From positions 19,282,001-19,346,000 of the forward strand of contig NC_092354.1 of the NCBI RefSeq assembly GCF_963676685.1: DNA of 64,000 nucleotides, read 5' to 3'. The position numbers and the translations under genes were made by a program. This DNA is from Mytilus edulis. Its lineage: Eukaryota. A model generated the notes under the pieces. That model was not told the DNA's origin and ran no database searches. It saw only the letters and a list, made by a program, of their open reading frames with translations. Positions 3,539 to 53,963 of this stretch are shown piece after piece (the first letter of the stretch is position 1; every line of letters begins with the position of its first letter).

Positions 3539-3922
3539 GTCTTATCTGTTTGTTTCATTAAAGAATGCACCAACAACTTATTCGCTACACTTGTTCTATC
3601 TAGATGAAGGTGACGATTTGTAACTGCTTCAATAATGCACATATTTTTTTATTTTTTTTTTATGAGATAGGGCTCGAAGATTGAGAAAGAAAAAATAATG
3701 ATCATTGATAGACACAAAAAAACACAATTTTATAAAAAATGGATAATCCATTATTCGTATTTATCCATCTTTTCTAAAAACTTATTGACGTTTGCTAAAT
3801 AACTTAAAGTATATTTACAGCTATTAAAAATGAAATTATTAATTTATGTTTATTTTCTTTTATTAAAACTCTAGGCCACACAACAAAAAATATAACGGGC
3901 AAGAAGGGACAAAACAAAGAAA

Positions 3923-5536
3923 ATGACTGATTACAAAAATACAGTGGGTTTAATGAATGTGTCCCCTGGTCATAATCAAGATCACTGTATAAAGAAAGAC
4001 CCGAGATGCAATAATGGAAGCAAAAATTGTACTTGCCAACTGTGTGGTAAAGGATTAAAAAGGGAAAAAAAGATTGAGAATAAGTGTCAATTGTGTGGTA
4101 AAGAAGGGAAAAAACTTGAAAAATCCGAGAATACTTGTAAAGGATGGAACCGGGAAGAAAAGTCCGAAGAACATAAAAAAATCCACTCGTGCGAAAAAAC
4201 GTTAAAATGCGATATGTGTAACAACGACTTAAATCAAATACCTATCTCACAGTCGCACACGCCAAAACAAACTCAGTCCGATGATACACCTTTTAACTGT
4301 TATGTATGTGGTAAAGATTTCAATCAACAATATCACCTACGGATGCATATCAGAATACACACTGGTGATAAACATTTCAACTGTTATGTATGTGGTAAAG
4401 ATTTCAATCAACAATGTCATCTACGTTTGCATATGAGAATACACACTGGTGATAAACATTTCAACTGTGATATATGTAGTAAAGGTTTTAGTCAAAAACA
4501 ATACTTAAAAGCACACATGTGTATACACAATGATAATAAACCTTTTAACTGTGACGTCTGTGGTAAAGAGTTTAGACAATCTGGCCACTTAAAAACACAC
4601 ATGTGTATACACAATGATAAACCTTATAACTGTGACGTCTGTGGTGAAGACTTTAGACGACTTAGACAATTTAAGAAACACAAGAGAACGCATACTGGTG
4701 ATAAATTATATAACTGTGATGTATGTGGGAAAGGATTCAGTAATCGATATAATTTTATGACGCATATCAGAATTCATACTGGTGATAAACCTTTTATCTG
4801 TGATGTTTGTAGAAAATGTTTTAGTTCTAAGCAGTACTTAAACTCGCACATGCGTATACATACTGGAGATAAACGTTTTAACTGTGACATATGCGATAGA
4901 AGGTTTGGTCAAAATAGTGACTTAAAGAAACATATGAGAACTCATACTGGTGTCAAACCATATGTGTGTGATGTGTGTTGTAAAGAATTTACTCGACGTG
5001 ATATCTTAAATGTACATATGAGAACACATGAGTTTAAAAAACCTAAAAAATGTAATGTATGTGATGAAGTTTTTCCTCAAAAGGAGGATTTACTAATACA
5101 CATGGGATCGCATACTGCCAAAAAACCATATACATGCAAAGTATGTAGCAAATGCTTTAGTAGTAAACACCAGTTAAAAGTACATACGAGAATACACACC
5201 GGTGATAAACCTTATAAGTGTGATGTGTGTAGTAAACGGTTTGGACAACTACCGTCTCTACGGACGCATATGAAAATACACACTGGAGATAAACACTACT
5301 ACTGTGATACATGTGGTAGAAGATTTCGTCTCAGTAGTGACTTAAAAAAACATACGAGAACACATACTGGTGAAAAACCGTATCTATGCTATGTATGTGG
5401 TAAAGGATTTAGTCGGACTGATACCTTACATGACCATATGAGAACGCACACAGGTGAAAAACCGTATAGCTGCGATGTATGTGATGAGAAATTTGGTCAT
5501 AGGTCAGAATTACGGATGCATATGAGAACGCACTGA
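3923..5536 (+). CDS. C2H2 zinc-finger protein (~15 tandem fingers), paralog 1
   Basis: 537-aa ORF with repeated CxxC-x12-HxxxH and TGDKP/TGEKP linkers; N-terminus MTDYKNTVG..CTCQLCGKGL is shared with the two other paralogs. Confidence 0.92.
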   Translation: MTDYKNTVGLMNVSPGHNQDHCIKKDPRCNNGSKNCTCQLCGKGLKREKKIENKCQLCGKEGKKLEKSENTCKGWNREEKSEEHKKIHSCEKTLKCDMCNNDLNQIPISQSHTPKQTQSDDTPFNCYVCGKDFNQQYHLRMHIRIHTGDKHFNCYVCGKDFNQQCHLRLHMRIHTGDKHFNCDICSKGFSQKQYLKAHMCIHNDNKPFNCDVCGKEFRQSGHLKTHMCIHNDKPYNCDVCGEDFRRLRQFKKHKRTHTGDKLYNCDVCGKGFSNRYNFMTHIRIHTGDKPFICDVCRKCFSSKQYLNSHMRIHTGDKRFNCDICDRRFGQNSDLKKHMRTHTGVKPYVCDVCCKEFTRRDILNVHMRTHEFKKPKKCNVCDEVFPQKEDLLIHMGSHTAKKPYTCKVCSKCFSSKHQLKVHTRIHTGDKPYKCDVCSKRFGQLPSLRTHMKIHTGDKHYYCDTCGRRFRLSSDLKKHTRTHTGEKPYLCYVCGKGFSRTDTLHDHMRTHTGEKPYSCDVCDEKFGHRSELRMHMRTH

Positions 5537-10417: not shown

Positions 10418-13400
10418 ATGAAGCTATCCAAATTTGTTTATATGAAAAACTACATGCAAAATAGAAGAAAAAATAAAAAATTCAAGGAAAAAGAATTAAA
10501 TGCAAAAAGATATTCCAGAAAAGATAAAAATTATAGAAAAACTGAAGCAGATAAAAAAAAGTCTCAGAGAGATGAATCTGATATAAGGCAGATAGAGAGA
10601 CAAAGAGAACTTTCTTCTTCAAGAGAGCCTAGAAAGAATGAAGATTTAAAAAATAAACAGAACTGGCTGCTAAAAGAAAGGCTAGAAAAAATGAAGATTT
10701 CAATAAAAGAGAACTTACTGCTAAAAGAAAAGTTAGAAAGGATGAAAATTATAGAAGGGCTGAAGCGGAAAGTAAGAAGTCTCAAAGAGATAATTCTGAT
10801 ATAAGACAGATGGAAAGACAAAGAGAACTTGCTTCTAAAAGAGAGGCTAGAAAAAATGAAGATTTCAATAAAAGAGAACTTGCTGCTAAAAGAAAATTTA
10901 GAAAGGATGAACATTATAGAAGGGCTGAAGCAGAAAGTAAGAAGTCTCAAAGAGATAATTCTGATATAAGACAGATAGAAAGACAAAGAGAACTTGCTTC
11001 TAAAAGAGAGGCTAGAAAGGATGAAAATTATAGAAGGGCTGAAGCAGAAAGTAAGAAGTCTCAAAGAGATAATTCAGATATAAGACAGATGGAAAGACAA
11101 AGAGAACTTGCTTCTAAAAAAGAGACTAGAAAGAATGAAGATTTCAAAAGAAACGAAACAGAAAAGAGAAAAAATTGCCAGACAAGACTACAGAAAACAC
11201 GAGTCTGAACGAGACTTCCACAGAAAAAAAGAATATAAGTCAAATCCAGAAAATTTAGGAAATGAGCGTTTGAAGAAACAAAGTTCTAGACAGAAAAACC
11301 TAGATATAGACAGATGTTATGAAAAGACAGTCAAAAGTACTTAAAGAAAAAACATTGATTTTACAAATCATCAAAAAGACCTAAAAAAAAATCAGGGTAT
11401 AACCCTTGATGCTTGCATAAGAAATTTTAAAACAAAAATAAATCAAGGTCCTACATATATATGTACTTCATGTCATCAAACTTGGTTCTGTGATTATGTA
11501 GTAAATTCTAAAACTGTCAAAACGAACACTCCTGCTAACATGACTCATTGTTTTACTAATTTTAAATCTGTACAGCACATAGAATGGATATGCCACATTT
11601 GTCTAAATGCAATTAAAAGAGGAAAAATGCCTCGTTTTGCAATTGCAAATAAAATGGGATTTCCTAAAAAACCAAAAGAATTAAATTTGTATCCTTTAGA
11701 AGAGAGACTATTATCACTAAGGATTCCTTTTATGCAGCTTCGACAGTTGCCTAGAGGTGGACAGTTATCAGGCAATGTTATAAATGTACCTGTTGAAGTT
11801 CAACCTAAAATAAATTCTCTTCCACATACAATAGAGAAATCAGGTACAATATCAGTCAAATTGATGAAAAAGCTTGAATTCAAAAAATGTGATTTAAGTG
11901 AAGATGTCAGACCATTTGCTGTCATTTGTGCATTACATTTTTTTTTTTAGAACAAGTGACTTGTACAAGTCTTCTGGGATTGAAATAAATGATGATTGGA
12001 TTACAGAAATAGCAAAAATAACTGAAGAAGAAACACAAAAGGAAAACAATAGTACAGAACAAGAGGATAACCAAGATGAAAATGATTCAGACGATGACTC
12101 CGATCATTTCAGTGAAGTAGATGAAAGTGAAATGCATGTTGGAAACACAGATACACTGTTAGATCACATTCAAGACGACAATCCACTATGTGATACAGGT
12201 TTAACTTTTGCTCCTGGTGAAGGTCAACGACCAATTAGTCTCTACAGTGATCCTGATGCAGAGTACTTATCTTTTCCAACTATATTTTGTGGTCAAAGGA
12301 GGCCAGATAACAAAGACAGGTCTGTTTCTGTTCACTATACTGATATTGTTAAATGGGAACTAAGTTCCATGGATAGGAGAGTAGCACAGTCTGTACCAAA
12401 CATTTTTTTTAAGTTAAAGAAAATTCAGTTAAAAACATAAGTGATAAGGTCAATCTTGCTCTGAGAAGGTGTCAATCAGAAGGAAAACAATGGACAGCAA
12501 AAGATGTACTGAATCCTAACACTGTAAATGATCTTGTAAGATTGGATGAAGGTTATTATATCGTTAGAAGTTTGGGAAACTCTCCAGTATACCTTGAAAA
12601 GAGGAAAAAAGATTTGTTTGCAATGATTAGACAGTTGGGTCTTCCAACGTGGTTTGGCTCTCTTTCATCTGCAGACACTAACTGGAAAGATTTGTTACGA
12701 ATTCTTGGCAAATTAAATGATGGCAAAAAGTATACTGACAACGAATTGGAAGAAATGGATTGGAATCAGAAATCTAAACTTGTTCAGAAAGACCCTGTGA
12801 CATGCTCTAGATATTTTGATTATCGTGTCCAACAGTTTATCAACTTGGTGTTGAAAAGTGATCATGATCCTATTGGAAAATTGACAGATTTTTTTTATAG
12901 GGTTGAATTTCAAAAGAGAGGTTCACCACATATTCATATCTTAATTTGGATTGAAAATGCACCAGTATATGAAAGTGATTCAAATGAAGGTGTTGTAGCA
13001 TTTATTGATAAATATGTCTTCTGTTCACTTGTAGAAAATGACAGTTTAGTCAATTTGCAAGTTCATAAACATTCAAAAACGTGCAGAAAAAAAGGTCACC
13101 CAATTTGTCGTTGTGGTTTTCCCCTTCCACCTATGAAAGCAACAGTTATTGTAGAACCTTTTGAGAAAGTGATGACATAGAAAAATGCAAGGCTATATAT
13201 AAAGAAATACAAAACGAAATTAATACACTTCACAATTCTGAAGATATAGACCAGATGACATATGACATGTTTTTAGATGATGTGTTACAAATGAATGATG
13301 AAAATTACATTAAGGCCATTAGAAGCAACTTTCAAATTCTGTTGAAACAAGTGCACAAGAAGCAACCTACTTAACACTACAGATGCCTTTAACAAAAGCT

Positions 13401-16342
13401 ACAAGACAAGTTGTATTCATTAAACGATTAGCACATCTCAACGTCACAAAAGAACTTTCCACCTAAAGCAATCATCAGCCCTAGAAAAACTAGTCCCAGA
13501 CTCTACTGAAATAGAATCAGACAATGATATTAAAAGATACTCGCGTAGACTAAAACATCTTGAGAACTGGTGTCTAGCAGACTATGTATCTGAATTTGAA
13601 TTGCAGTATCCTAAAACTTCAGAGTCCTCAGATCATGAATCAGAACAGCAGGACAATGGATCTGAAAGTGAAAATGAAGAGGCAAATGCAGATGTTATAA
13701 AAGAAAACAATAACAAAATTGACTTAACTCTGAAGAATGGTATTAGAATATACCAAAGAAAAACGCATAAGGTTATAAGATATGTTAAATACAATTACAA
13801 CACTGACTCTGAAAACTTCTACAGAGAACGCTTAATGTTATTTTGTCCATGGAGAAATGAACTTTCAGATTTGCAATGTGAACATGAAACATTTGAAAAA
13901 ATGTACTTGACTGTTGCAAGACTATTAGAATAAAAAGCCAAGAAATATGAGGGTAAAGTAATAGATCTAGAGAAAGCTATAGAAGAGGCAGAAAATGAAT
14001 GTAATGAGAATGATCAAATAGCATCTGCCACACAACAAGTAGAAATGGAAGATGCTGAATTAGGCCCACCAGAATCTGAACAGTATGTTCATTTCAATCC
14101 AGATAGACCAACAGAACATAGACTGTATGATATGTCCCGTGAAGTTGGAATTGCAAGAACAGTAGAATTGACAAATCATGCCAACAGAATAAGTGAGAGT
14201 GATTATTTTGCATTGAGAAGCTCCTTGAATAAAAAGCAGTGGGAATTTTTCCAACATGTTGTCACATGGGTTAAAACAAAACATGAACTATTTTATACAT
14301 TTTTGACAGGTGGAGCAGGATGCTGAAAATCTGTAGTTGTCAGAGCAATATTTCAAGCTTTACACAGACACTTATGTTCTATTGAAGGTGAGGACCCTGA
14401 CGATATAAGAATTCTTCTTTGTGCTCCTACTGGAAAGGCAGCTTACAATATAAATGGTCTGACTATTCACAATGCTTTCCAGATACAACCAAATAAAGGA
14501 CTTGACCAGTCAATGTCATGTGATGTGAATGAAATACAGAAATTTGTCTCTGATTTTGATTGATGAATGGTTGGAAACAAAATGTTCTCTTTACTGGAGA
14601 GAAGGCTGAAAAAAATCAAGGGAAGCAACTGTTCATTTGGTGGCGTCAGTATCATAGCTATTGGTGACTTTTTCCAACTCCAACCTGTATTTGACAGCTG
14701 GATGTTCAATTATCTTAGCAAAGGATTAACAGCATTAGCCCCTAATTACTGGAAATTAATATTTTCTATTCATGAACTTACTGAAATAATGAGACAAAAA
14801 GATGATTTAGAATTTGCTCTTCTACTAAATAGGTTGAGACAAGATCAGCTGACTGAAAATGCTTTTGCAGTTTTAAGTACCAGAATTGTTTCAATCAGTG
14901 ATCCAACATACAGAACTAATGCTACACATTTGTTTGTTGAAAATGCTTTAGTGGATAACTTTAATTTGCAATACATATCTAAATTAGGCTCACAAAAGGT
15001 TAAAGTTAAAGCAGTTGACACAGTTTGTGGGGATTTACCAGCATCTGTAAAGACAAAATTACTTAGTTCTTTACCAGAAAAACAGCCTGCTACATGTACC
15101 ACCAATCTTGCAAAAGAAGTAGTACCAGCAATTGGGATGAAATATGATCTTACAGCTAATATTTAAGTCACTGATGGTCTTACAAATAGTTCAACTTGTG
15201 AACTTAAATTGATTGCGTGCAAAACTGCATCTTTAATACCAAGTATTACATGGGTTAAGTTTGAAGATGCCAGAATATGTGCTAATAATAGAAAAAAATA
15301 TTCACACTTGTACGGAAAAGATGTTGAAAAAACATGGACTCCAATGTTTGACATTAAAAGATCATTTACTTAAAAATATAAGACATTTGAAATAATTCAG
15401 TTTCCTCTTCGCCCAGCAGCCGGATAAACAATTCATAAATCGCAAGGAGATACATTACACGAGGTTGTTGTTAGTCTGAAATCAAAACGTAAAGGGAAAA
15501 TACCACATATTGACTATGTTGCGCTAAGCAGAGCTACATCTTTAACTGGATTACAGATATTAATTCTTAATAAAGAAGCAATAGCTGTAGCAGATTGTGT
15601 TCGACAAGAATTACACAGACTAAGGACAGATGCAACTCTACAATTGTGCTTTAAGCCATTGTATAACTTATCAAGTAACTATTTTAAAGTAGTTTTTCAC
15701 AACTCAAGGTCATTGCATGCGCATTTTAATGATCTTAAATCAGACCCTAACATCTTAGATGCTGATGTTATTGGTATTGCTGAATCAAGACTTATTTCAA
15801 CAGATTAAAATGATGATTTTTATGTACCTGGTTTTGAACCACCAGTTCGATTAGACCAAAAGCAAACAAACTTTAATACAAGACCACCTCATGGATTGGT
15901 ATTATATTATCGAAATGATTGTATTCTTCACAATACAGCAACTTTCCAACTCCATCTTAAGTTTGTTATAGCAGACATAATATCACCCAGCAAAGGTCTT
16001 TTTCAGGTTGTCTTTGTTTACAAAGCACCAAACTGCAAATTGCAACAACTAAAAGATACTTTCCTTGCGAATCTTCTTCCTGACGTGTATTTAAGACATC
16101 CAAAAATCATCATAATGGGAGACTTTAATATTGATATAAACACTGGGAACACTTCTTTTTTAAAGTTCATGATAGATTCATTTTGCTGTTCACAAATTGT
16201 GTCTAAACCTACTACATCTTATGGTACATTGTTGGACTTAATTTTCCTAAATTTTGATAGTAAGCTAAATTTTGAAACAGATGTTCTTGATTCCTATTGG
16301 TCAGATCATAAAGTTATATATGTAGCCATTAAAACACAATGA
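10418..16342 (+). pseudogene. Helentron RepHel polyprotein: charged repeats, Zn-binding region, HUH Rep, PIF1-like helicase, APE-like endonuclease
   Basis: VEFQKRGSPHIHILIW (HUH), FLTGGAGC*KS (Walker A), GDFFQLQPV, ELTEIMRQKDD, IIMGDFNID...LLDLIF...YWSDHK (APE); many stops and frameshifts. Confidence 0.88.
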
Positions 16343-16951
16343 TTCAGTGTCATAATTATTTTATATGCCAAAACCAGCTTTGTTTAAAACAATGAAAATC
16401 AAACCTGCTGAAAAACGACACATTTTCGGTTGCTGAAAATGCAACCTCGAATGTGCAGGAGTGCTTCTAAAGGAAAATGGGTTTCCACTCCAACAGATTT
16501 GCCTTTTAATATGTAGGAATAGAAATGAGTTGGCTTCAAGACTCCTGATATCCAGTTTTACCTGTTTAGAAGAAAGCTTCTTTACAAAGCTTTCTTCTTT
16601 ATAGGTACACTGGATTAACGGTAACAGAGGTAATGAAATTTGAAACTGTGTTGCTTTGACGTCCATAAAGCAGAAAGGCCATTGGTGATTAGTCAACAAT
16701 TTTGCTATGGAAGAAAAGTAGAATTCCATTCATTTCAAGTCAGTAATGATTGGAGACATCAAATTTTACTACCTGAATGCTCATTGTATCAGTGGAGAGT
16801 TGTGTACACTTCGCATGTGAACACTCCTGATATTTACTCGTTATAAATGTATATTATCATTTTTACACAATTTAATCTACTGTGTGATGGTTCATATTCT
16901 GGACGCCAGTCTTTGCTCCTTTGTAATAAATCTACATACCAAAAAACAAAT

Positions 16952-19900
16952 ATGAAGCTTAGAAATGGAAAAATATTAAATACTAAACTCGTTCAAAGGG
17001 TATCTACACGTCTCAATCTTCAGAATCGCTTATCTAAAAATACGACCATAGCTAACGTTTTTAACAATAAAAATCGTGGTTACCCTTCTATCGATAAGTG
17101 TCATGCCAAAAAATGACTTACGTGTCCCCGTCTTTCCACCAACAATACAGTAAGGTCCACATTTAATGGTCGCACATTTTCTCTAAATTTTGAAACTGAT
17201 ATTACTTGAAAAACAAACAGTATTATTTATTTACTCACATGAAACAAACCGGGATGCGGTATTCAGTACGTAGGTGAAACTGGGCGATATTTATCTAAAC
17301 GCACGCAAGAACACCTGTATCGTTTTAAAAGACCCAATAAATTAAAAAGTATCATTTATCAACATCTTAAGAAGCACAGTCATCCTATTAAATATTTAAC
17401 AGTTCAACCTTTAGAAGTAGTAAATAAGCAGCCTGGTGAATCTCATTCCAAGTTTGTACGATCACGAAAAATAAATGAATTAAATTGGATTAAAAAATTA
17501 CAGACAGTCTACCCTCTCGGTCTTAATGATAATATCATGGGAATTGGCAATATATCAAGAACCGATTCTGTTAACATTTTGGATATAGTTTCTAAAACTG
17601 TTCGTAAAAATCGTTCTCATGGACGCAGAAAAAATCGCAATCAAAGAAAATTTCGGACCAACCATACAAATATTTCGGACCTAATTTCCATTTCAAAAAA
17701 CAACGGCAGACATTATCTGTTAACCAAGCTTTGTTCTTTACCTATAAATAAATTAAATAAAATTTTAGAGGATTGCAACACAATTTCATATTACAGTCCT
17801 AAGTATGAAATTGTCCAAATTATAATGGCATATTGTTATTCTAAACTGTTTCCAAAAATTGATCGCCCTGAAGATCATAAAAAACATTTTATTAAAATAA
17901 AGTATGTCAATAAAGGTTTTGATTTTGTAAATATTGCCGGTATTTTTAACGACCATTCTGTTAAAGACCAAATTCCTGGATATTTTGATAATACTGAACT
18001 CCCTCTCATTTGTTATATTTACAAGAAATCTACCCGAAAATATGTGTTTAATTATAGCCAATTGTGTAAAGATGTAAATATCACTGAAAATACACCTATG
18101 TCGTGTAATTGCAGTAATTCAGAATACACCTATGGACCAATTTCCCATGTTATAACAGGAGACCTTAACATCGTTCGCGACCGAGAGTTAAAATCATTCC
18201 TCAGTAAAGGACCTAAATATCGTCCCCCGTCAACTGTTAACTGGAATGAGTGTCGTAATATCATCAACGACTCACTCCGCGCCTACTGTTTGAAATGGGT
18301 AAAACGGGAAAAAGCTGACAAAAAATCTTTGGACTCTTTTTTTAATTCAGTAATGAAGATAGTTGATATTCGAATACAACATTTTAAAGAACATTTTACC
18401 CTCAACAAAAACTATAAAAACCCTATTTCGCGTATCAAAAATAAACTAACAGAACTAGCCAAGGAATTTGTTTTTGTCCCGGCTGATAAAGCTGCTAATA
18501 ATATCATTATTGTTTGACGTAAATTTTATATAGAGGTTCTGCAAAAGGAAATCACGAATTCACCAACATTCCAACTGACTTCATTTTCAGAAAACGACAT
18601 CTGTAACAAACATAAACTTTTAGCTACTTCTTTACAAGCAGAACCAAACACAATGAAAGTCCCAACTATGTACTGGCTTCCGAAGCTGCACAAAAAACCT
18701 TACAAATATAGATTTATTTCATCTTCCAGCCATTGTTCAACTACTAAATTGTCTGTTTTACTTACTAGTACACTTGGTACAATAAAAAACCTGATAATAA
18801 ATTGTTCAAATAAGGCCTTTGAAAATAGTGGAATTAATTACTTTTGGAGTGTCAAAAACTCGTTGGAAGTACTCGATAAATTGCATGCATATATTGGTGA
18901 TTTTGAATCTGTTCAAAGTTTTGATTTTTCTACCCTATATACCACTTTGCCTCATATTCTTATTAAGAAAAAATTCACATCCCTAATTAACTGGGCATTT
19001 AAAAAGTCGGAATGCGAGTACATATGTTCAAACTCTTTTAGATCATTTTTTAGTAGCAATAAACAAAAGAACTATGTCAATTGGACATGCTTTGATACTA
19101 TTTATGCACTTGAATTTTTACTTGATAACATTTTTGTTCGCTTTGGAGATTCCGTATATCGTCAAGTTATTGGAATTCCAATGGGGACTAACTGTGCACC
19201 ACTTATTGCGGACCTGTTTTTGTATTGTTATGAGTTACAATTTATGACGAAAATTAGCAAAGACCCATCAAAACAACATTTGATACAAAAATTTAACAAT
19301 ACTTTTAGATATTTGGATGATATATTGGCTCTAAATAATGACGACTTCAGTATGTATACTAAAGAAATTTATCCTGTAGAACTTACTTTAAATAAAGCTA
19401 ATGATAACAATGACCACTGCCCTTTCCTCGATCTTGATATCTATATCATAAACGGGAAGCTTAATACAAAAATTTATGATAAAAGAGATGATTTTTCATT
19501 TCCTATTGTTAATTATCCATTTTTAGATGGTGACGTTCCCTTGTCACCATCTTATGGTGTTTATATATCTCAACTTGTACGATTCGCTCGTGTATGTAAC
19601 AATGTATTAGATTTTAGCGAGAGAAATTTATGTATTACTGAAAAATTATTACACCAGGGTTTTCGATATCACAAACTGGTCAAAACATTTACTAAATTTT
19701 ATCACCGGTATAAGGAAATAATTCGTAAATATAACTCAACATGCAGACATCTTATACGTTCAGGTATTTCACATCCAAAATTTTATGGAAATATTCTTTA
19801 TAAAGCACAAAAATGTCAGTATTCTCCTCAGAAACTAACAAAACCTTTAAATAGACTTATTAAAAGGGGATATAGTTACGATACTGTTGTCAGGTCATTA

Positions 19901-19960
19901 AAGATTGCATATTTTGGCTTTAACATTGATTCACTGATAGGGTCTTTGCATCGGAACTAA
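16952..19960 (+). CDS. GIY-YIG endonuclease / reverse transcriptase selenoprotein (~1002 aa, 4 predicted Sec)
   Basis: Single frame from ATG 16952 to TAA 19958-19960; the only internal stops are TGA at 17114, 17207, 17240 and 18515, each at a Cys-type position; SECIS downstream. Confidence 0.85.
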
Positions 19961-20001
19961 ACACATTTATTTCTAAAAAAACAGTTGTTGGCATGACACG
20001 G

Positions 20002-20092
20002 GTTATGTTCTTCTCATATATTTTATGATAGTATGATACTAAACCCCTAACGGGAGGGATTGTACCTGATATTCATATGATGAAGACATAAT
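20002..20092 (+). promoter_or_regulatory. SECIS element (type 2)
   Basis: AUGA (20025-28), helix II gtatgat/attgtac, unpaired AAA (20041-43), ccc/ggg mini-stem, UGAU (20067-70), helix I tcatat/atatga and ttatgttcttc/gaagacataa. Confidence 0.85.
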
Positions 20093-20275
20093 CTTTCAAT
20101 CAGTTTAATTGAGGTCTGGAGCTGGCATGTCAGTTAACTGCTAGTAGTCTGTTGTTATTTATGTATTATTGTCATTTTATTTATTTTCTTTTGTTACATC
20201 TTTTGACATCAGACTCGGACTTCTCTTGAACTGAATTTTAATGTGCGTATTGTTATTGTTTTACTTTTCTACATT

Positions 20276-20366
20276 GGCTAGAGGTATAGGGGGAGGGTTG
20301 AGATCTCATAAACATGTTTAACCCCGCCGCAATTTTGCGCCTGTCCCAAGTCAGGAGCCTCTGGCC
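20276..20366 (+). ncRNA. Twister ribozyme-like fold, P5-type permutation
   Basis: GGGG-GAGGG...U^AA-CCCC-GC-P3-CCUG-UCCCAAGU-CAGG closed by ggctagaggt/gcctctggcc; matches the twister core apart from P1. Confidence 0.7.
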
Positions 20367-21319
20367 TTTGTTAGTCTTGTATGATTTTAAATTTTAGTTT
20401 CTTGTGTATAATTCGGAGTTTAGTATGACGTCCATTATCACTGTACTATTATGCATATTTTAGGGGCCAGCTGAAGGACACCTACGGGTGCGGGAATTCT
20501 CGCTACATTGAAGACCCATTGGTTGCCTTCGGCTGTTGTTTGCTCTATGGTCGGATGGTTGTCGCTTTGACATATTCACCATTTCCTTTCTCAATTTTAT
20601 ATATATATAATTCTTGAAATATTTGTTTTTGAATACAATCAAAACCCATTGCTTTAATATAGATGTAAAAAGGAAGTTTTGAAGACCACAAGTTCCATGC
20701 CTCATTTCTCTTCCTACAAAATTATTAAATTTAACTGGCTGTTTTATGAACTATTATTAAATAATCAAAATGTTTATGAATGTCGAAATCCTTGCTGTTA
20801 TGTACATATATTCATTGTAATTTTTCATATAGATAACTTGATACAACTTACAATACTTTTGTTCACTATATATATATATATATGATATATGATAACCATG
20901 TATCATGATTAAGTATGTACAGTTTACTTTTTGTAATGCCAACTTAATCTATATTTATCTCATCCAATATTCATTGACTTTTTTGTTTAAGAAATGCTCT
21001 CATGTTCATATTAGACATAATAAATCAGTTTCTGTACAAATACCACAAATTTTATTATAATATAATTACTTGGAGTTCTCCAAATTGAAAAACAATCCAT
21101 AAATCCAACATTTTTGATTTCTTATGATTTCAATTATGTCTTATTCTAAGTACAGGTTTATCAAAATGTGTAAATCATTAAAGGTTTAAATGTTGAGAAA
21201 AAAAATCAAATATTGCATTAATTTTTCATTCTACTCGACTATGTAGTTGCATTTTTTCTTATACATTTGATAAATATGTAGAAGTCATTTATAAAACAGA
21301 AACTAATGAACAATTCATG

Positions 21320-21595
21320 CAAACATTTGCTTCATAGAGAAAAAATGTGTGAACATTTGCTTAATAGAGAAGAAATTTGTAACATTTGCATATTAGAGAA
21401 GAATTTGTGAACATTTGCTTTCATAGAGCAGAAATTTGTGACATTTGCCTATTAGAAAAGAACTTGTGAACATTTGCTTAATAGAGCAGAAATTTGTGAA
21501 CATTTGCTTAATAGAGCAGAAATTTGTGAACATTTCCTTAATAGAGCAGAAATTTGTGAACATTTGCTTAATACAGAAGAAATTTAAGAACATTT
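21320..21595 (+). repeat. 30-bp minisatellite
   Basis: (aatagagcagaaatttgtgaacatttgctt)n, about 9 degenerate units. Confidence 0.85.
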
Positions 21596-24500
21596 AATGA
21601 CTGTTTTATAATAATCCAATGTAAAGTGAATAGTAAACTAATTGCTGAAGAAAAATAAGAATTATATAGATTGTTTCAGTAACATCATACAACATTTAAT
21701 AAATAAATTTGGTTTTTTTACTGTCTTCTGATTGGTTAAAATTATTAGTTTTATTTTCAATGTTGTCAATTTTGATGGCGACACACCCACTCTGACGTTG
21801 TGTATTCATACTCCAACATGTGTGTACGTTGTTATTGTTAATATAAATAATATAAAAAGTTCTTTGAGCCTTATTTTTTATAGAAATTTATTTATAATGA
21901 ATGGCAATAATTTATTTTGATTTTATTGAACCATAAAACTTCGCGGATTATTCAATGTGAAGAGTCAAAAATTAGTTTTATGGTTCAATAAAATCAAAAT
22001 AGATAATAGCCATTCATTAAATAAACGTATGGAGTAAACTCTTGAATTTTGCATTAAAGCAAATGCACCAGATCTGATATGAATAGAGTTTAAAACAGAG
22101 ATACTATGGACTGTAACTCAGTATACCATGAATAGAAATGAAACAACAATGACAATTACTTTGACAGCTAGTTGTTAAATGCTCAAGAGAAAATAAATTA
22201 TATATAGAATCTAAACTCTTTAAGTTGGAAAAACTGTTGAATATTCTTCTCGACAAGTCCTTACACATTGACTTCAAGAAATTTTGAAGGTCAAGTTATG
22301 GAAACAATAATCATATCATAATATAATCTCTGTGTAGCTTTTTATATATACTGTTTTTACTGTCATAGTTTGACTTTGAATGTGTGTTGTTAAAGAATGT
22401 AAATATTTTTCTATAAGTGAACTGTTTTAATGCACATATATAAAATAAAAAATGTATAACACAATGAATATTATAATGCATTATTTGAAGTATTTGATGT
22501 GTTCAAATTTTTCATAATAAACAATTAAATTTGATGTCTTTTATTATTTTTCACACCACATTCATTTTTGAAATTGATAAGAACAAAACTTCCAGTCAAA
22601 AAGAGAAATAAAAATGAGTCACAACCCAAAAATGACAAACAAATAGCAGCTTCACACATGTTAGAACTACTATAAAGGTCGTCTCTATTTAAGCTAGCAA
22701 AAACTTAGTTCTCTGTGTCTACCTTGTTCAATTCAAGTAATACCTATTCACTTTGAATCTTAATTTAAAGATCAGGTCACCACTCATAAAAGATGATAAT
22801 CTTGGGTCCAGTAAAAAGATTGATACAGTTGATCTGTTGCCATTCTCCATAATGATCAGTTACTTTGCTGTCATAACTAATTGAACAACTTATATACATA
22901 TATGGAACAAATCAATTAAAGTTTCCTTAACGATCCTTGACCAGTAATGATAACGTCTGGCGTATATACAAAATGTAGTCCTGGTATCGATGATGAGTTT
23001 ATATAGAACAAATATATAAACATGTAAGTTCATGAGAGAACAACACAATACTTGAAAAGTGTGTTTTAGACTTCAAAACTGAAAATAATAAACTTGTTGA
23101 AAGTGGTTTATTCACAAGAAAGATTAGATTTTGGTTCACAATGTTTCCTTTAACAAAAAGTATTACTATTATTTCCTGCATCAAATGTCAACAAAAATCT
23201 AAGGTGAGCGACACAGGGTCCTTTGCCCCTCTAGTTTCGGTTTGCAATAGCGTTATCAGTTTGAGAACCACGACATGGTATATAACCCATTGTAATCTTA
23301 AGTCGTCATTTCAAGAAACGTCAACAATGATAGGCAATATATATACAAGTGGAGATCAGTTCTAAGGGTTATATCGAATATCGAGTATCGAATATACAAC
23401 AACATCATCAAACAAATAATCGAAGAATATCAAGGCTACTTCACAGTGTATCGACAAAAATGAAACACAATTTATCATTAGAAATACGAAGAGATGATTT
23501 TATTGCAAACGATGAAACAAACGACCAGAGTTTTAAAAAAGATATCAGGGATACTCCAACGATCCCACAACATCATGAACCAAATTACCATGCGATATCA
23601 AGAAGTTTACTTATGACATATGGCCTTAAAAAGATACAATATATCGACATTAAGCAAAGAATTGTTCCAAAAAGAAATACAGAGCTATATGCATCCATAA
23701 GTCTTGAATGTCTTGTCTATGACAAAAATTGTTTTCACATCTATAAGGTTTTTTTACCTGTATTCGTTCTCATATATCCCTGTAAAGTATCAATCCGACT
23801 AAATCCTTTACCACACACATCGCACATATACGTTTTTTGAACCAGTATGTGTTGTGGGAATCGTAGTTCACTAGTTTGACGACATCTTCTACCGCATACA
23901 CCACACTTACAAATGTGCTTTTCACCAGTATGTATTTTCATATGCATATATATACATTTGTAGTTTTAATCGTTGACTAAACCGTTTGCTGCATATATCA
24001 CAGTTAAAAGGTTTATTATCCGTGTGTGTTATTGTGTTAACCTTTAAATAGTACAACATTTACGTGACACATATTATGTATATATATATATATATATAGG
24101 TTTTTAGCAAGTATGCATTCCAATGTGTTAGTAAATCGTGTCCTTGGCGTAATATTTTATCACATTCTTTACAAATTCAATATTTTTCAAACATATCTGT
24201 TCTCATATGTCTCTTTAAGGCATCACTTCGACTTAAATACAAACATCACATATATATGGTTTGATATCAGTATGAATTTTTATGTGTGTCTTTGGCATGT
24301 TTAAGGAACTATTTTGACCATTACTTCGATCGTACACGTCTCATCATAAAAAGTTTCCATATTGTGTATACGCATGTGTGACTTTTATTCACAAACGTCA
24401 CAGTTAAAAGCTTTACCATCATTGGGATAACGCATGAGTGACTTTAATTGTTGATTAAGTCTAAAACTTTTACCACATTCATCACATGTATATTAAAGGT

Positions 24501-27514: not shown

Positions 27515-28474
27515 TTAATCCCCATGATCACCAGTATGTATTCTTATATGTGTCTGTAATTTACCGGTTCGAGCAAATCCTTTACCACATACATCACATG
27601 TATAAGGTTTTTCTCCAGTGTGAATACTCATGTGTTCCTGTACGTGCTGCTTCCGACTAAAAGCTTTACCACATACATCACAGCTAAACGATTTATCACC
27701 AACATGTATTCTTATATGTCTCTGTAAGTTACTTCTTCCAGCAAATCCTTTACCACATACATCACATGTATAAGGTTTATCACCAGTGTGTATACGCATA
27801 TGATTTTTTACGTGCGGCTTCTGTCTAAAAGTTTTACCACATACATCACAGCTAAAAGGTTTAACATCAGTGTGTATACGCATATGTTTATTTACGTGTG
27901 TCTTCTGTCTAAAAGCTTTACCACATACATCACAGCTAAAAGATTTATCACCAATATGTATTCGTATATGTCTCTGTAAGTTACTTCTTCTAGCAAATCC
28001 TTTACCACATACATCACATGTATAAGGTTTATCACCAGTGTGTATAAGCATATGTTTCTTTACGTGTGGCTTCTGTCTAAACGCTTGACCACATACATCA
28101 CAGCTAAAAGGTTTAACATCAGTGTTATATGTTATATGTTTACCACATATTTTACATTTATACGGTTTGTTGGCAGTTTGCTGAATTATAATTGTGTTAA
28201 ATTCACTAGGTTGGTATTTTGACTGTTCTTCTCTTTTCAATCCTTTAACACATACTTGACAAGTATTCTCGGACTTATCATGTCTTTTCCATTCGTTACT
28301 ACACAATTGACACTCATGCTGTATCTTTTCTTCCCTTTCTAATCCTTTACCACACAGTTGACCAGTGCAATTCTTACACCCATTATTATATATTGTGTCT
28401 GCCTTTATAAAGTGATCTGGATTATGATCAAGCGAATCGTTCATAAAATCAACTGTATTTTTGTTGTCAGTCAT
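27515..28474 (-). CDS. C2H2 zinc-finger protein, paralog 2, truncated to 7 fingers by a premature stop
   Basis: 319-aa ORF; after the TAA the frame continues directly as SFNCDVCGKSF..., so the stop appears to replace the Lys of a DK linker. Confidence 0.85.
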
Positions 28475-29077
28475 TTTCTGTGTTTAGCCCCTTCTTGCTC
28501 TCTTTTGTGTTCTTGGCTTGCGCCTTTTACAAAAGAAAAATAACTTGAATCAGTCAATTTAAGGTTGAATATCATAATATCTAAACATCTAAATATATTT
28601 AGTAAACGTAAGTAAGTTGGGGTTTTTTTAAGAAGAAAAATGGTTCATACCGTCACCATTCGAGGATTATCTGATATATACAATTGTTGTCCTTTTTTGG
28701 CGTGTATAATTGATCATTACATTTTATTTGTTTTCCTCTATCTTCATGATCTTTGCGTCTTAGATATTTGAATTTCTGGTTTTTTTCTCTATCGTCGATG
28801 TGCCTAATGTCTTTTGATGATTTTTTAAAAAGATTTATTTCAAAAGACAGTAACATATCATCACAACTCGGACGCTTCTGTACTGTCATCTTTTAAAAGA
28901 GTAGCCGTAACAGGGTACTGCCCGATTTGGGCAAGTTAAATTAAATTCTGTATATCGGCAAGTTAACATATTATGTGTATTCCCTCTTTCTTTTCTTTTT
29001 AATCATTACTTTTTAGGTTATAAAAAAATATTGCACAGTTTAGCTATCTTGAGATTTCTATTCAAAAAAAGATATTG

Positions 29078-29207: not shown

Positions 29208-32200
29208 AATAAAGGCAACAGTAGTATACCGCTGTTCAAAACTCATAAATCCATGGACAAAAAACAAAATCGGGGTAACAAACTAAAACCGAGGAAAACG
29301 TATTAAATATAAGAGGAAAACAACGACATAACACTAAAATGTAACACACATAGACAAAATCCCACGAAAATAACAAATATGACATATATATATAATATCA
29401 AAACCAAATGCACGAATTTGGGATAGACAAGTACCTTGACACATCTTATCGCAATGTGAATTTACACTCAAAAATAAAAGAAAACAAACGACAATTGTTC
29501 TTTTNNNNNNNNNNNNNNNNNNNNNNNNNNNNNNNNNNNNNNNNNNNNNNNNNNNNNNNNNNNNNNNNNNNNNNNNNNNNNNNNNNNNNNNNNNNNNNNN
29601 NNNNNNNNNNNNNNNNNNNNNNNNNNNNNNNNNNNNNNNNNNNNNNNNNNNNNNNNNNNNNNNNNNNNNNNNNNNNNNNNNNNNNNNNNNNNNNNNNNNN
29701 NNNNNNNNNNNNNNNNNNNNNNNNNNNNNNNNNNNNNNNNNNNNNNNNNNNNNNNNNNNNNNNNNNNNNNNNNNNNNNNNNNNNNNNNNNNNNNNNNNNN
29801 NNNNNNNNNNNNNNNNNNNNNNNNNNNNNNNNNNNNNNNNNNNNNNNNNNNNNNNNNNNNNNNNNNNNNNNNNNNNNNNNNNNNNNNNNNNNNNNNNNNN
29901 NNNNNNNNNNNNNNNNNNNNNNNNNNNNNNNNNNNNNNNNNNNNNNNNNNNNNNNNNNNNNNNNNNNNNNNNNATCTTTTCATTATATTTTTATTATAAT
30001 TATTATTATTATTATTTTCATTATAATTGTTNNNNNNNNNNNNNNNNNNNNNNNNNNNNNNNNNNNNNNNNNNNNNNNNNNNNNNNNNNNNNNNNNNNNN
30101 NNNNNNNNNNNNNNNNNNNNNNNNNNNNNNNNNNNNNNNNNNNNNNNNNNNNNNNNNNNNNNNNNNNNNNNNNNNNNNNNNNNNNNNNNNNNNNNNNNNN
30201 NNNNNNNNNNNNNNNNNNNNNNNNNNAATTATTATTACTATTATCATTATCATAATATTTATTATATTTATTATTATTATTATTTTCATTATGTTTATTC
30301 TTTTNNNNNNNNNNNNNNNNNNNNNNNNNNNNNNNNNNNNNNNNNNNNNNNNNNNNNNNNNNNNNNNNNNNNNNNNNNNNNNNNNNNNNNNNNNNNNNNN
30401 NNNNNNNNNNNNNNNNNNNNNNNNNNNNNNNNNNNNNNNNNNNNNNNNNNNNNNNNNNNNNNNNNNNNNNNNNNNNNNNNNNNNNNNNNNNNNNNNNNNN
30501 NNNNNNNNNNNNNNNNNNNNNNNNNNNNNNNNNNNNNNNNNNNNNNNNNNNNNNNNNNNNNNNNNNNNNNNNNNNNNNNNNNNNNNNNNNNNNNNNNNNN
30601 NNNATAGTACATAGATTCAACGTTTACTGNNNNNNNNNNNNNNNNNNNNNNNNNNNNNNNNNNNNNNNNNNNNNNNNNNNNNNNNNNNNNNNNNNNNNNN
30701 NNNNNNNNNNNNNNNNNNNNNNNNNNNNNNNNNNNNNNNNNNNNNNNNNNNNNNNNNNNNNNNNNNNNNNNNNNNNNNNNNNNNNNNNNNNNNNNNNNNN
30801 NNNNNNNNNNNNNNNNNNNNNNNNNNNNNNNNNNNNNNNNNNNNNNNNNNNNNNNNNNNNNNNNNNNNNNNNNNNNNNNNNNNNNNNNNNNNNNNNTGTT
30901 TATAGTACAACGATTCAGCTGTTATTGTCTTTATTTATCATATTTCACCCTTTCATATACTTACATATTAATGTTTAATTTTATTAAGAACAAATCATAT
31001 ATGTTAACCTTACGTTCCATATACAGATTTTTTGAGCGAAATATCGACTAATTTACTAAGATAAATACGTTGGTATGCTTTATGCTGTATTTCAGAATGA
31101 ACTGAATTATTATCAACTGAAACCATGAGACTTGGGTACAGGCTTAGATGTTAACGATTGTAGCGTAACTACTGTTGGATTTCATTAAAGTTTACAAAAC
31201 ATCAATATGATCAAATTATATGTTCATGTTTCGGAAGAATTGTTTGTAGTTTTGATTTAATATGTGACCATATGTTAAAGCCTTGCCTTTAGTTCTATTA
31301 TACAATACACATAAACATATAGATCGTATACTCACTTATTCAAATCACAAATTTTCAAGTAGAGTAATCTAAAAATAGCATTGAAAGAAAAGGTTAAAAC
31401 ACGAAGGGAGATAATTACAGTAAATTACTTATGGAGTGCCAGTTTAATATTATATTTTTTAATCCAGGGATAAAAAGGAAAAACAGCTGCCTGGGCATTC
31501 GTCGGTATCGGTTTGGATTTCAATTATAAACTTCTGGTTTTCCCGTTCGTTGTCTAGGCAACCGGGTGACCTATTCCTTTATTTTGTGTTTATAATGTAT
31601 TTTATGCAAATAGCAAAACTATATTTTCTGTAAAACGTTTTTGAGGAATGTTTATTTGGACATTTGGAGTATATTTACTTTAAAGAAATATCAGTTGAAG
31701 AAAATATCATTATTTGTATACGATTAAATATCTACGGGATATTCTGGAACAATGTTTGAGAACATGAATAAAAAATATAAGCAAATAATATTGTGTTAAT
31801 GTTGTTAAAACATTTGACTCAATTGTAAGAAATAAAACATTTAGAAAAACAATAACATAAACATTTTTCTGATGTTTAAATAATATGTTATTTAAATATT
31901 TTGTGAGCGACCTCCATATGACATTTGAAAAATGTTTATAAAATGTTATGTGTTTGCTGGGATTGTCATGAAATAAACTTTTAGAATTAATTTGTATAAT
32001 ATGCAATATTGTAAAAAAATTTTAAAAAAAGGTTTTTTTTAAAGTTTTATAGTAATACATATAAGAAACATATAAGAAATCCCAATGTACATTAAATTGC
32101 GTTAATGTAACAGTAATGCAATGTAAAAGCTATAGTAAACATAAATATAATTATTGCTTCATTCGCAATTAATCGGTTCGTTACCCAACCTGGCATTCAG

Positions 32201-40474: not shown

Positions 40475-42103
40475 TCAAAAGTTTGTCGGTATTACACGAT
40501 AAAGTGGAATCATCCCTGAAACGACACAATTAAAATGTGTATCATCATTGCGTATACATGGTATACACATGTGTAACTTTAATTCACTACGTCGTTTAAA
40601 ATCTTTACTACACACGTCACAGGTGAAAGGTTTCTCATCATTGTGTATACACATGTGTGACTTCAAATCACTAGGTCGTTTAAAATCTTTACTACAAACT
40701 GTACAGATGTTAGGTTTATCCTCATTGTGTATAAACATGTGTGACTTTAATTGTTGATTAAGACTAAAACTTTTACCACATTCATCACATGTATAAGGTT
40801 TATCACCCGTGTGAAAACGCATGTGTGACTTCAAATCACTAGGTCGTTTAAAATTTTTACTACAAACTTTACAGATGTAAGGTTTATCCTCATTGTGTAT
40901 AAACATGTGTGACTTTAATTGTTGATTAAGACTAAACATTTTACCACATACATCGCATGTATAAGGTTTATCACCAGTGTGAATACGCATGTGTGACTTC
41001 AATTCACTAGGTCGTCTAAAATCTTTTCCACACACGTCACAGTTGAAAGGTTTATCACCAGTGTGCATACGCATGTGTGACTTTAATTGACTGAGTCGTC
41101 TATAATCTTTTTCACACACGTCACAGGTATAAGGTTTATCACCAGTGTGAACACGCATGTGTGAATTTAATTGATTAATTTGTCTAAAATCTTTTCCACA
41201 CACGTCACAGTTAAAAGGTTTATTATCATTGTGTATACGCATATGTGACTGCAAGTATGGTTTAAGACTAAAAGATTTACTACATACATCACAGCTAAAA
41301 GGTTTATCACCAGTGTGTATAAGCATATGTTTCTTTACGTGCAGCTTCTGTCTAAAAGCTTTACCACATACATCACAGCTAAATAGTTTAACATCAGTAT
41401 GAGTTCTCATGTGCAACTGTAAGTCATAACTCTGTGCAAATTCTTTACTGCATATATCACATGTATAAGGTTTATCATCAGTCATACCAGTGTGATTTAT
41501 CATGTGTGACTTTAATTCACTAGGTCGTTTAAATTCTCTTCCACAAACGTCACAGTTAAAAGGTTTATCATCATTGTGTATACGCATGTGTGACTTTAAG
41601 TTTGGTTTTAGACTAAAAGATTTACTAAACACATTACATTCAAAAGGTTTATCACTAGTGTGTATTCTCATATGCATCCGTAGGTGATATCCACGATTAA
41701 AATCTTTACCACATATTTCACATTTATAAGGATGGTTAGCAGTTTGCAGAATTGTGTGTGTCTTTGATTCACTAGGTTCATCTTTTAACGTTTCTTCCCT
41801 TTCCAATCCTTTAACACACACTTTAGCACTTTTTTCGGACTTGTCATGCCTTTTCAATTCTTGTCCACACAATTGACACTCATTCTGTATATTTTCTTCC
41901 CTTTCTAATCCCTTACCACACAGTTGACAAGTGCAATTCTTACCCCTATTATTACATATCGTGTCTTCTTTTATAAAGTGGTCTGGTTTATGATCAGGGG
42001 ACACGTTAATTAAACCCATTGTAATTTTGTTGTCAGTCATTTTCTGTGTTTTGCCCCTTTTTCTCCGTTTTTGCTTTTGTTGTCTGGCTTTCATTCTTAA
42101 CAA
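40475..42103 (-). CDS. C2H2 zinc-finger protein, paralog 3 (~12 intact fingers); likely start at MTDNK (~42040) or via an upstream exon
   Basis: 542-aa ORF with tandem C2H2 fingers and a recent two-finger (168-nt) internal duplication. Confidence 0.88.
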   Translation of the reverse strand: MLRMKARQQKQKRRKRGKTQKMTDNKITMGLINVSPDHKPDHFIKEDTICNNRGKNCTCQLCGKGLEREENIQNECQLCGQELKRHDKSEKSAKVCVKGLEREETLKDEPSESKTHTILQTANHPYKCEICGKDFNRGYHLRMHMRIHTSDKPFECNVFSKSFSLKPNLKSHMRIHNDDKPFNCDVCGREFKRPSELKSHMINHTGMTDDKPYTCDICSKEFAQSYDLQLHMRTHTDVKLFSCDVCGKAFRQKLHVKKHMLIHTGDKPFSCDVCSKSFSLKPYLQSHMRIHNDNKPFNCDVCGKDFRQINQLNSHMRVHTGDKPYTCDVCEKDYRRLSQLKSHMRMHTGDKPFNCDVCGKDFRRPSELKSHMRIHTGDKPYTCDVCGKMFSLNQQLKSHMFIHNEDKPYICKVCSKNFKRPSDLKSHMRFHTGDKPYTCDECGKSFSLNQQLKSHMFIHNEDKPNICTVCSKDFKRPSDLKSHMCIHNDEKPFTCDVCSKDFKRRSELKLHMCIPCIRNDDTHFNCVVSGMIPLYRVIPTNF

Positions 42104-42879
42104 AAAGAAAAGAAAAACATAAATCAGTGAATTTAATTTGAATATCTAACATTTTCTAAATATCTTAGGTTTTTTTTATACACGTAAATACGTTTTAATA
42201 ATAGCTATGGGTCATGCTATTCAAGAAGTATCCCTCTGATATACAGTTGTTGTTCCTTTTTGAGTCTAAAAATGAACTTTAAATTTTGATTTTTTTCTCT
42301 ATCTTCGTGCCATTTGTTATTTGTAGAATTTTTAAAAGATGTACATCATTGAGGCAGTTACATATCATCACAACTCGGCCGATTCCGTACCTTCGTCTAG
42401 ATAGAAGACTATCGAATTCACCCGAGGATTGTCGATTGAAATCAGGGAATCTGATTGGACGAAATAAATGCATGTCGTCATTTGGTAAGTAACCGCCACA
42501 ATATGCACTGCCCAATTAAGCAAGTGAAATTAAAAGTTGTGTTTCGACAAATTCACATACTATTTGTATTTTTCTCTGTTATAGACATTATAAATAAACT
42601 GTTATCACAGAGATATGTCTCGACTTTTTGAAATTTCGATAATGCAAAATGTTGAAATCAAAATAGCAACACTTTAACATGCAAGTCTTGCAAATATTCA
42701 AAGTCAATGAACCCTGACTGAAGGTACATGGCTTAACCATCCCAATGGAAATAAAATGTGCAAATGCTGATACAACTGCATCCAAATACTATTGACTTAT
42801 CATAAGTAGTTGCCTTTAAACAAACCTAAACACAAACTTATACATGTAAACTCGGCAACATCTGAAAGTAAATAATCCC

Positions 42880-52866: not shown

Positions 52867-53963
52867 GGGGGGGGGGGGGGGGGGGGGGGGGGTCAAGAAA
52901 ATTTTATATGTTTGATTTCAAAATGACCTTAATAAGCATTGTGTTAAGAATTAATTGCTTCTTTTATAAATTCATTGGGGGTGTTTTAAAGCGTTGACCA
53001 AAGTACATTTTGTACGAAGCGCGGAAATATGCGCACGGTCAACGCTTTTACAATCCTAGTATGAAATAATTAAAAGAAGCATTCAATAGATATAGGAAGA
53101 TGTGGTGTGAGTGCCAATGAGACAACTCTCCATACAAATAACAATTTAAAAAGTAAACCATTATAGGTTAAAGTACGGCCTTCAACACGGAGCCTTAGCT
53201 CAATACTTATAATTACATTTTTTTGCTATGCTCATGAAAAATTCATTTTTATCAATTATTTCTTTAAATAACCTGTGCTCTTTTTTAGTGACGTGTCATC
53301 ATAAACTTCATTGGGATATGAATGTGAGTTTTAGTATGATGCACAGGCGTTTAATGTTATCCAATCAAAATAACACATACATGTACTATATTAATTATAA
53401 TAAGTTTCATAACATTAATTGGTTGAGGTAGAAAACGGAAACAATCAAACAAAAACAGCATTTTCACATATATAGAGTCGTAACTACATGTAATGGGAGG
53501 GGGAGTAGGAGGGGGTGAACGGATCATATAAAAATTGCGGTTTTTATCCAACGCAATCATAGGTTTGAACGTAGTTTTCAATTTAGACTCGTTTATATTT
53601 TTTCGTTTGGGCTTGTATCATATTTTCCCTCCGGTTTATATGATCCGTTCATCTTATATTGACTCTTAACATTTAAGTGTCTATCTAAAAATTAGGGTAC
53701 TTTTTATATGGCCTTCCAAATACCGTTTCGATCCCTAACATCACTAAAGAGACATTTATTGTCGAAATCCGGATCTGGTGTACAAAAAAAATATTGACAC
53801 CGTATGTTTGTGGCATAAAATCGTGGCTACAAGTTAAAAAAAAATTCTGTTTAGTATTAAATTTATATTAAGATCCATTTTGTTACATCTTGTGATCAAT
53901 TTTATTTGGCAATCGCCAATGGCAGTCAGCAGGGTTAAAGAACATCAGTTGTTCGACCTGTTA
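52867..53963 (+). repeat. Right copy of the ~1.1-kb direct repeat flanking the LINE
   Basis: Differs from the left copy by G-run length, a 13-bp indel and at least 2 substitutions. Confidence 0.92.

Follow-up and report, generated by a model that had tools for sequence, protein, structure and literature searches.

The window analysed here is a stretch of 64,000 nucleotides of the Mytilus edulis genome (contig NC_092354.1, positions 19,282,001 to 19,346,000), and all positions below are counted from its first letter. It holds a Naiad Penelope-like element (PLE) in which an N-terminal GIY-YIG endonuclease and a C-terminal reverse transcriptase (RT) share one open reading frame. When TGA is read as selenocysteine (Sec, U), the frame 16847-19960 is open over 1037 residues with exactly four TGA, and the first good ATG, at 16952, gives a protein of 1002 aa ending at 19960. 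The features of the element are as follows.

16854..20600, forward strand: window copy of the Naiad Penelope-like element, with almost none of the 284-bp leader and no upstream pseudo-LTR
16952..19960, forward strand: single ORF of 1002 aa with four in-frame TGA and a TAA stop (dN/dS 0.11-0.12 against subfamily B)
17084..17596, forward strand: GIY-YIG endonuclease region, residues ~45-215, with R117, H121, E176 and N192 (sequence; I-TevI profile match)
17099..17209, forward strand: predicted zinc site 1 of C50, U55, C58 and U86 (homologue Cys conservation; putative grouping)
17114..17116, forward strand: UGA1, U55, second Cys of CX4CxxC (153 exact genome matches, TGA in each of the first 100 listed)
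17207..17209, forward strand: UGA2, U86, the Cys before the GIY-YIG motif (genomic copies)
17240..17242, forward strand: UGA3, U97, first CCHH Cys, in predicted site 2 with C102, H138 and likely H144 (copies, homologues)
17597..17656, forward strand: Lys/Arg-rich block (sequence; low pLDDT at residues 227-232)
18014..18559, forward strand: predicted telomerase RNA-binding-like domain (TRBD-like), residues ~355-536, with CxC, H399, GPKY, DKA and U522 (model against TERT chains)
18104..18148, forward strand: CxC (C385, C387) and H399, predicted zinc site 3 together with U522 (conservation, co-occurrence across clades)
18515..18517, forward strand: UGA4, U522, the Cys 8 residues past DKA, ending a predicted beta hairpin (copies, homologues, model)
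18584..19501, forward strand: RT core with YLDD at residues 787-790 (sequence, structure matches)
20015..20079, forward strand: SECIS with AUGA/UGAU core, AAA and apical mini-stem, 55 nt past the stop (Rfam SECIS_1, covariation)
20277..20366, forward strand: conserved structured tail motif, separate from the Sec finding (kept in loci L062, L069, L086 and L071)

The element lies just downstream of a decayed Helitron (11345-16340, forward strand) that retains Helitron_like_N, PIF1 and endonuclease pieces, and a long hairpin at 16550-16615 may be the Helitron 3' hairpin. Elsewhere the window contains an intact-looking LINE (47739-52917, reverse strand) with a 1212-aa APE-endonuclease/RT frame and a 558-aa upstream frame, a cluster of three multi-C2H2 zinc-finger frames (3896-5533, forward strand; 27518-28483 and 40478-42145, reverse strand), and extremely AT-rich simple repeats and masked stretches at 29300-31000. 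Within the element, the tail motif at 20277-20366 includes two short palindromes that have other letters in L086 but are palindromic there too, and we take the motif to resemble a permuted twister ribozyme. Rfam recognised no ribozyme in the tail, and RNAalifold on five sequences of the motif found no double change and weak fold support. Twister variants have been reported in Schistosoma non-LTR elements, according to the available part of PMC8501958.

The four TGA codons start at 17114 (U55), 17207 (U86), 17240 (U97) and 18515 (U522). The N-terminal motif set reads C50-x4-U55-x2-C58, then U86, then U97-x4-C102, where U97, C102 and H138 belong to a CCHH motif whose second His is variable among homologues. 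Further on come a KR-rich block (residues ~216-235), CxC at 385, GxKF/Y (as GPKY) at 420 and DKA at 512, the last as D512KAANN followed by U522. A Pfam scan of the ORF alone returned nothing over the cut-off, and a family profile matched I-TevI with an E-value of 3e-5. An earlier, sequence-only reading of this DNA had placed three of the UGAs in zinc-binding motifs around the GIY-YIG and the fourth after DKAANN, just before the RT core, and both placements are borne out: U55, U86 and U97 stand at conserved Cys of the predicted zinc motifs, and LINE and R2 RT cores align from ~525, close to U522. If each UGA were a stop, the predicted products would have 54, 85, 96 and 521 residues, so that the short peptides foreseen for the first three follow directly from the frame. 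A mitochondrial-type code was considered and rejected, as these are nuclear repeats with only four TGA, all at Cys sites, beside seven TGG.

The protein has the hallmarks of Naiads, namely CX2-5CxxC upstream of GIY-YIG, CCHH, the KR-rich block, CxC, GxKF/Y and DKA, and the element is Naiad-like in structure, with 5' truncation, pseudo-LTR partial tandems and a body within 3.4-4.4 kb. It also has those of selenoprotein Naiads: a UGA before GIY-YIG (U86) and another at DKA+8 (U522), a 3' SECIS and a host tRNA-Sec. The tandem unit measures 4031 bp, and an upstream 3'-end copy is joined to the whole leader, as a pseudo-LTR, in 18 of 30 copies. The window copy may itself be silent because nearly all of its 284-bp leader is missing. 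Some Naiad families have a (TA)n target bias; this copy ends in a short (TA)n, and the 30 flanks are for the most part simply AT-rich. The junction of the upstream 3' end with the 284-bp leader (L008:1120-1145) resembles a splice acceptor, with pyrimidines running up to a CAG, and none of the 15 listed of 21 RNA joints showed splicing at this leader start. In keeping with Naiads, which lack a canonical hammerhead ribozyme, none was found among the six Rfam matches in 15500-22000 or in the other leader-bearing loci scanned.

We searched the whole genome (1.37 Gb, 2368 contigs) for copies of the element. A DNA search brought up 5049 candidates, and the 40 that were scored are full length and near-identical; the 30 best full-length copies all carry the four TGA in a frame of 3009 nt. 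These 30 differ from the window copy at 6-20 positions, and three copies have one private extra stop. Among the scored endonuclease matches, 149 of 150 have at least three TGA, and the TGA in the DKA stretch is likewise present in 149 of 150 scored matches. Fifteen more divergent loci were also fetched, nine of which form a second subfamily (B, against A for that of the window copy) with ~92% DNA identity; it keeps the four UGAs and the SECIS, with the exception of L061, which has TGC at U97. Between A and B (dS = 0.27), dN/dS is 0.11-0.12 over the whole ORF, 0.11-0.12 upstream of UGA4 and 0.11-0.13 downstream; purifying selection acts on both sides of UGA4. Because the TGA codons are fixed in 30/30 copies, in most endonuclease matches and in subfamily B, they are not the result of chance decay. 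Sequencing error and pseudogene decay were rejected on the fixation of the four TGA across copies together with purifying selection. The element family is very young and abundant, with at least 150 endonuclease-bearing copies.

Downstream of the stop, the SECIS_1 match at 20015-20079 (forward strand) scores 30.9 bits (E-value 0.0043), below the Rfam cut-off of 35. It is the only one in 15500-22000 (Rfam scan, six matches at E up to 5), in line with the sequence-only view that one SECIS serves all four UGAs. The locus L086, from a family 75% identical in DNA, has a SECIS at the same place, and 7 of 19 pairs are changed on both sides between the two, a value reached in 0 of 500 shuffles and set against at most 1 in slid controls, with all double changes stemming from this one sequence. 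The host genome has five tRNA-Sec genes over the cut-off, the anticodon TCA being read in one; four equal-scoring genes lie within 0.6 Mb (C7:74815896-75374462) and the fifth on C1. RNA reads cover the ORF, with a sense bias in run X22 and no clear one in X21. At UGA4, no letter other than the genomic one was listed at depths of ~60-145 in three raw runs, and no skip over UGA4 was listed in the RNA reads. The four UGAs are very probably selenocysteine codons, which would be decoded through the 3' SECIS.

In-frame UGA codons together with a SECIS have been described for four clam and spider Naiad families (Craig et al. 2021, PMC8557442). As given in the accessible text of that paper, all four have a UGA before GIY-YIG and another 8 residues past DKA, the clams add a UGA at the first CCHH Cys and one spider adds one at the second zinc-finger Cys; the Sec residues are predicted, and the spider selenoprotein Naiads are of independent origin. 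Compared by eye with the clam Naiad_Mmer and Naiad_Scon, whose DKA+8 residues we took from the main text of PMC8557442, the mussel element shares the N-terminal GIY-YIG, CxC, DKA, RT and 3' SECIS, the UGAs before GIY-YIG, at the first CCHH Cys and at DKA+8, and the spacing U-x4-C. It thus has the clam UGA set plus an extra UGA at the second Cys of CX4CxxC, in a mussel rather than a clam host, and its SECIS lies 55 nt past the stop and has an apical mini-stem, whereas the published SECIS elements are described there as type I and 1-21 nt past the stop. The spider Naiad_Sdum and Naiad_Smim, as presented in the same source, also have UGA before GIY-YIG and at DKA+8, and Naiad_Sdum at the second CX2-5CxxC Cys as well, but they keep Cys in CCHH, have a UGA at the first zinc-finger Cys and show a reduced IFD. 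Our search of mostly open literature, including 10.64898/2026.07.22.740005 without its supplement, returned no paper on selenoprotein or mussel Naiads beyond PMC8557442, and nothing relevant on a PLE structure or on natural selenolate zinc fingers. The element is a real selenoprotein Naiad in a new host lineage and adds a mussel to the clam and spider hosts of this group.

Naiads had already been published from Mytilus. In the part of the source available, Naiad_Mgal and Naiad_Mcor belong to the same clade and have the same domain order as our element but differ in being all-cysteine, with no UGA and a lengthened zinc finger; they represent a ~37% identical lineage (L089 type) that stands apart in our quick tree. 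A family near-identical to Naiad_Mgal over the first 400 residues is present in this genome, and identity of our element with Naiad_Mgal was rejected, since the two are separate families in the same genome. At least three stop-free all-cysteine Naiad families (L103-L108 and others) have open frames of ~1053, 1007 and 1000 codons, and because such intact families coexist with the Sec family, a Naiad can do well in this genome in the absence of Sec. The sequence-only idea that the element is limited to hosts that use Sec is true by construction for this family, but intact all-cysteine Naiads thrive in the same genome.

To assess the replaced residues, we aligned 281 homologues pairwise to the element protein, with Cys counts inflated by gene prediction, which truncates proteins at TGA. 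At the site 1 positions C50, U55, C58 and U86, Cys is found in 74/75, 85/86, 85/87 and 106/107 homologues, respectively. Position 522 is Cys in 250 of the 264 homologues that cover it, His in 1 and Trp in 13, these 13 being probably TGA read by code 4; C385 is present in 210/219, C387 in 206/219 and H399 in 223/223 covering homologues. Two database proteins end at residue 384 and three at 521. In the alignments published with PMC8557442, as far as available, Cys stands at 522 in 23/23 Chlamys rows and in 0/18 Hydra and canonical rows, the CxC motif is unique to Naiad and Chlamys by a figure legend, and the 522 Cys and CxC co-occur across clades. On this conservation and co-occurrence, it is fairly probable that C385, C387, H399 and U522 form a third zinc site in which U522 is a ligand of the CxC-His set. 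We infer that C50/U55/C58/U86 and U97/C102/H138/H144 are zinc sites as well. The four TGA are all among the nine Cys/Sec positions predicted to be ligands, and the remaining 20 Cys positions have none (Fisher p 0.005, or 0.014 if two other well-conserved Cys are counted), in a test that is post hoc because the ligand sites were chosen after the data had been seen. The sequence-only reading had set UGA4 apart as a different kind of site, which these data do not support: it replaces a Cys as conserved as the others, including in every Chlamys row, and three genomic copies carry TGT there.

The closest relatives (P0013, P0014, P0022 and P0023, 58-79% identical) all have Cys at 522 and group at support 100 in a quick tree of 82 of the 238 covering rows (all with at least 41% identity and every fourth of the rest). 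The DNA of P0014 is L086, with TGT at 522 and TGA at the first CxC Cys, the latter at contig bases 2-4. A clam-like Naiad on a metagenome contig (L088:1400-4316), its 3' end cut off, has TGA at four sites, with TGA at both the first CxC Cys and DKA+8. The first CxC Cys is not among the UGA sites given in the available text of PMC8557442. Every readable selenoprotein lineage has at least one UGA in the linker between the endonuclease and the RT core, at DKA+8 in the published four, at CxC in L086 and at both in L088, to which the five database proteins ending at residue 384 or 521 can be added. Comparison of these families suggests that Sec and Cys may exchange among predicted zinc-ligand positions.

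Within this genome, a 22-mer count at site 4 gave 1275 TGR against 3 TGT and 0 TGC, with TGA in 99 of the first 100 listed, so a Cys variant failed to expand. The TGT copies are three old ones, each on a different contig, with 88-94% identity to the window copy; all are 5'-truncated, and one has TGT at CxC too. A single Cys source likely gave rise to them, since they form one group (support 0.83) with a further rare change in common, and they may have been copied in trans.

An AlphaFold model built from 83 sequences, with Sec entered as Cys (mean pLDDT 88), has residue 522 as the last of a hairpin (506-522) that precedes a helix (523-536). The best structural match of residues 355-950 in this model is telomerase reverse transcriptase (TERT), with residues 355/357-950 aligned from the first residues of the TERT chains (Z 14-18, rmsd 4-7.5 A). 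TERT differs in having no GIY-YIG and no Sec, and it is not known to carry the CxC-H-C set. Since the TERT alignment starts at ~355, a product stopping at UGA4 would consist of the endonuclease, a linker and most of the TRBD-like domain, extending ~300 residues beyond the endonuclease and lacking the last predicted site-3 ligand. The form of ~520 aa expected from the sequence alone thus has the right length, at 521 residues, but would not be an endonuclease alone.

How much of this form could be made depends on the three UGAs before it. With an independent read-through probability p at each UGA, its yield is p^3(1-p), which has its maximum of 10.5% at p 0.75; at p 0.1 it is 0.09%, and 99.9% of ribosomes stop early. 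By this estimate, low selenium would lead mainly to peptides of 54-96 residues. Processive Sec insertion would make the yield of the 521-aa form lower still. According to the available part of PMC9599142, Sec insertion and termination compete, and degradation can remove truncated selenoproteins or the mRNAs behind them. In a comparison of low power, we saw neither synonymous constraint beside UGA4, with synonymous changes in 3/19 and 4/19 downstream codons, about the ORF average, nor a recoding signal, the folds next to it being weak.

The reading we favor, and consider likely as a whole, is that the element is a Naiad Penelope-like retrotransposon whose four UGAs would be translated as Sec through the 3' SECIS, yielding one full-length endonuclease-reverse transcriptase of 1002 residues. 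Each Sec would replace a Cys ligand in one of three predicted zinc sites, and products stopping at a UGA would be by-products. A shortage of selenium would then lower all long products together, as a passive throttle with no swap of enzyme forms. The sequence-only reading had foreseen a throttle by four UGAs served by one SECIS; selenium-dependent output is indeed plausible, but the expectation is generic.

That reading had gone further and proposed a selenium-gated switch. In a widened form of this proposal, the linker UGA is kept in order to make an RT-less nuclease/RNA-binding protein in a ratio set by selenium, and the stop may move between CxC and DKA. Such a switch would account for the UGA in the linker of all readable selenoprotein lineages, for the position of U522 directly ahead of the RT core and for the dominance of TGA at site 4 in this genome, and UGA-terminated isoforms of SELENOP do exist (PMC8230778, as far as available). 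SELENOP likewise has several UGAs per mRNA, with rat isoforms that end at UGA, but it is a transport protein with two SECIS elements in vertebrates, whereas the mussel element has a single SECIS and its Sec residues would lie at predicted structural ligands. A gate at UGA4 between endonuclease-only and full protein is not supported, given Cys at 522 in nearly all homologues and in all four closest relatives. Furthermore, the linker UGAs are restricted to conserved Cys that co-occur as one motif set, and the two stop positions would give different products, of 384 and 521 residues. Three read-throughs must come before UGA4, so that low selenium would remove the 521-aa product; no synonymous constraint was seen around UGA4, at low power; three related copies have TGT at 522, one of them also at CxC; and all-Cys Naiads amplify in the same genome. 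We regard the switch as improbable, and it keeps a small probability because every readable lineage has a linker UGA and the Cys variant has not spread. If true, it would be a nutrient-gated transposon switch, movable between two ligands of one site.

A near-neutral origin would leave the anatomy of the favored reading in place and deny the throttle: once the element had acquired a SECIS in a host rich in selenium, TGY and TGA drifted at buried metal ligands that tolerate a selenol, with Sec of no benefit and output in mussels at no time limited by selenium. It fits the differences in Sec positions between families 75% identical and across the published families, the coexistence of Cys families in the genome and an oyster SELENOP with 46 Sec (PMC8230778, as far as available). 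Four TGA kept over a dS of 0.27 would also be unsurprising without selection (~0.5 changes expected, by a rough estimate), so their retention alone does not prove that Sec is selected over Cys. Against this origin, a read-through cost is to be expected at each UGA, but three to four are retained in every lineage, the SECIS structure is conserved and the Cys variant at site 4 amounts to only three copies; on balance we think this origin unlikely. Less credible again, and in our view very improbable, is that the UGAs act as genuine stops or are decoded by near-cognate Cys or Trp tRNAs, with Cys-type Naiads moving the element in trans. The SECIS score under the cut-off and the intact Cys Naiads in the genome would allow this, but it is at odds with purifying selection along the whole ORF, the confinement of UGA to conserved Cys positions, the covarying SECIS and the at least 150 young endonuclease-bearing copies.

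On the favored reading of full-length decoding, copies such as these would be called dead by an annotation based on stop codons. The Cys at DKA+8 was previously unexplained, and our comparison suggests that it is the fourth ligand of a CxC-His site and that Sec shuffles among predicted zinc ligands only. To our knowledge, zinc held by selenium ligands in a natural protein would be out of the ordinary. Sec and Cys Naiad families side by side in one genome offer a ready means of asking whether selenium supply affects transposition.
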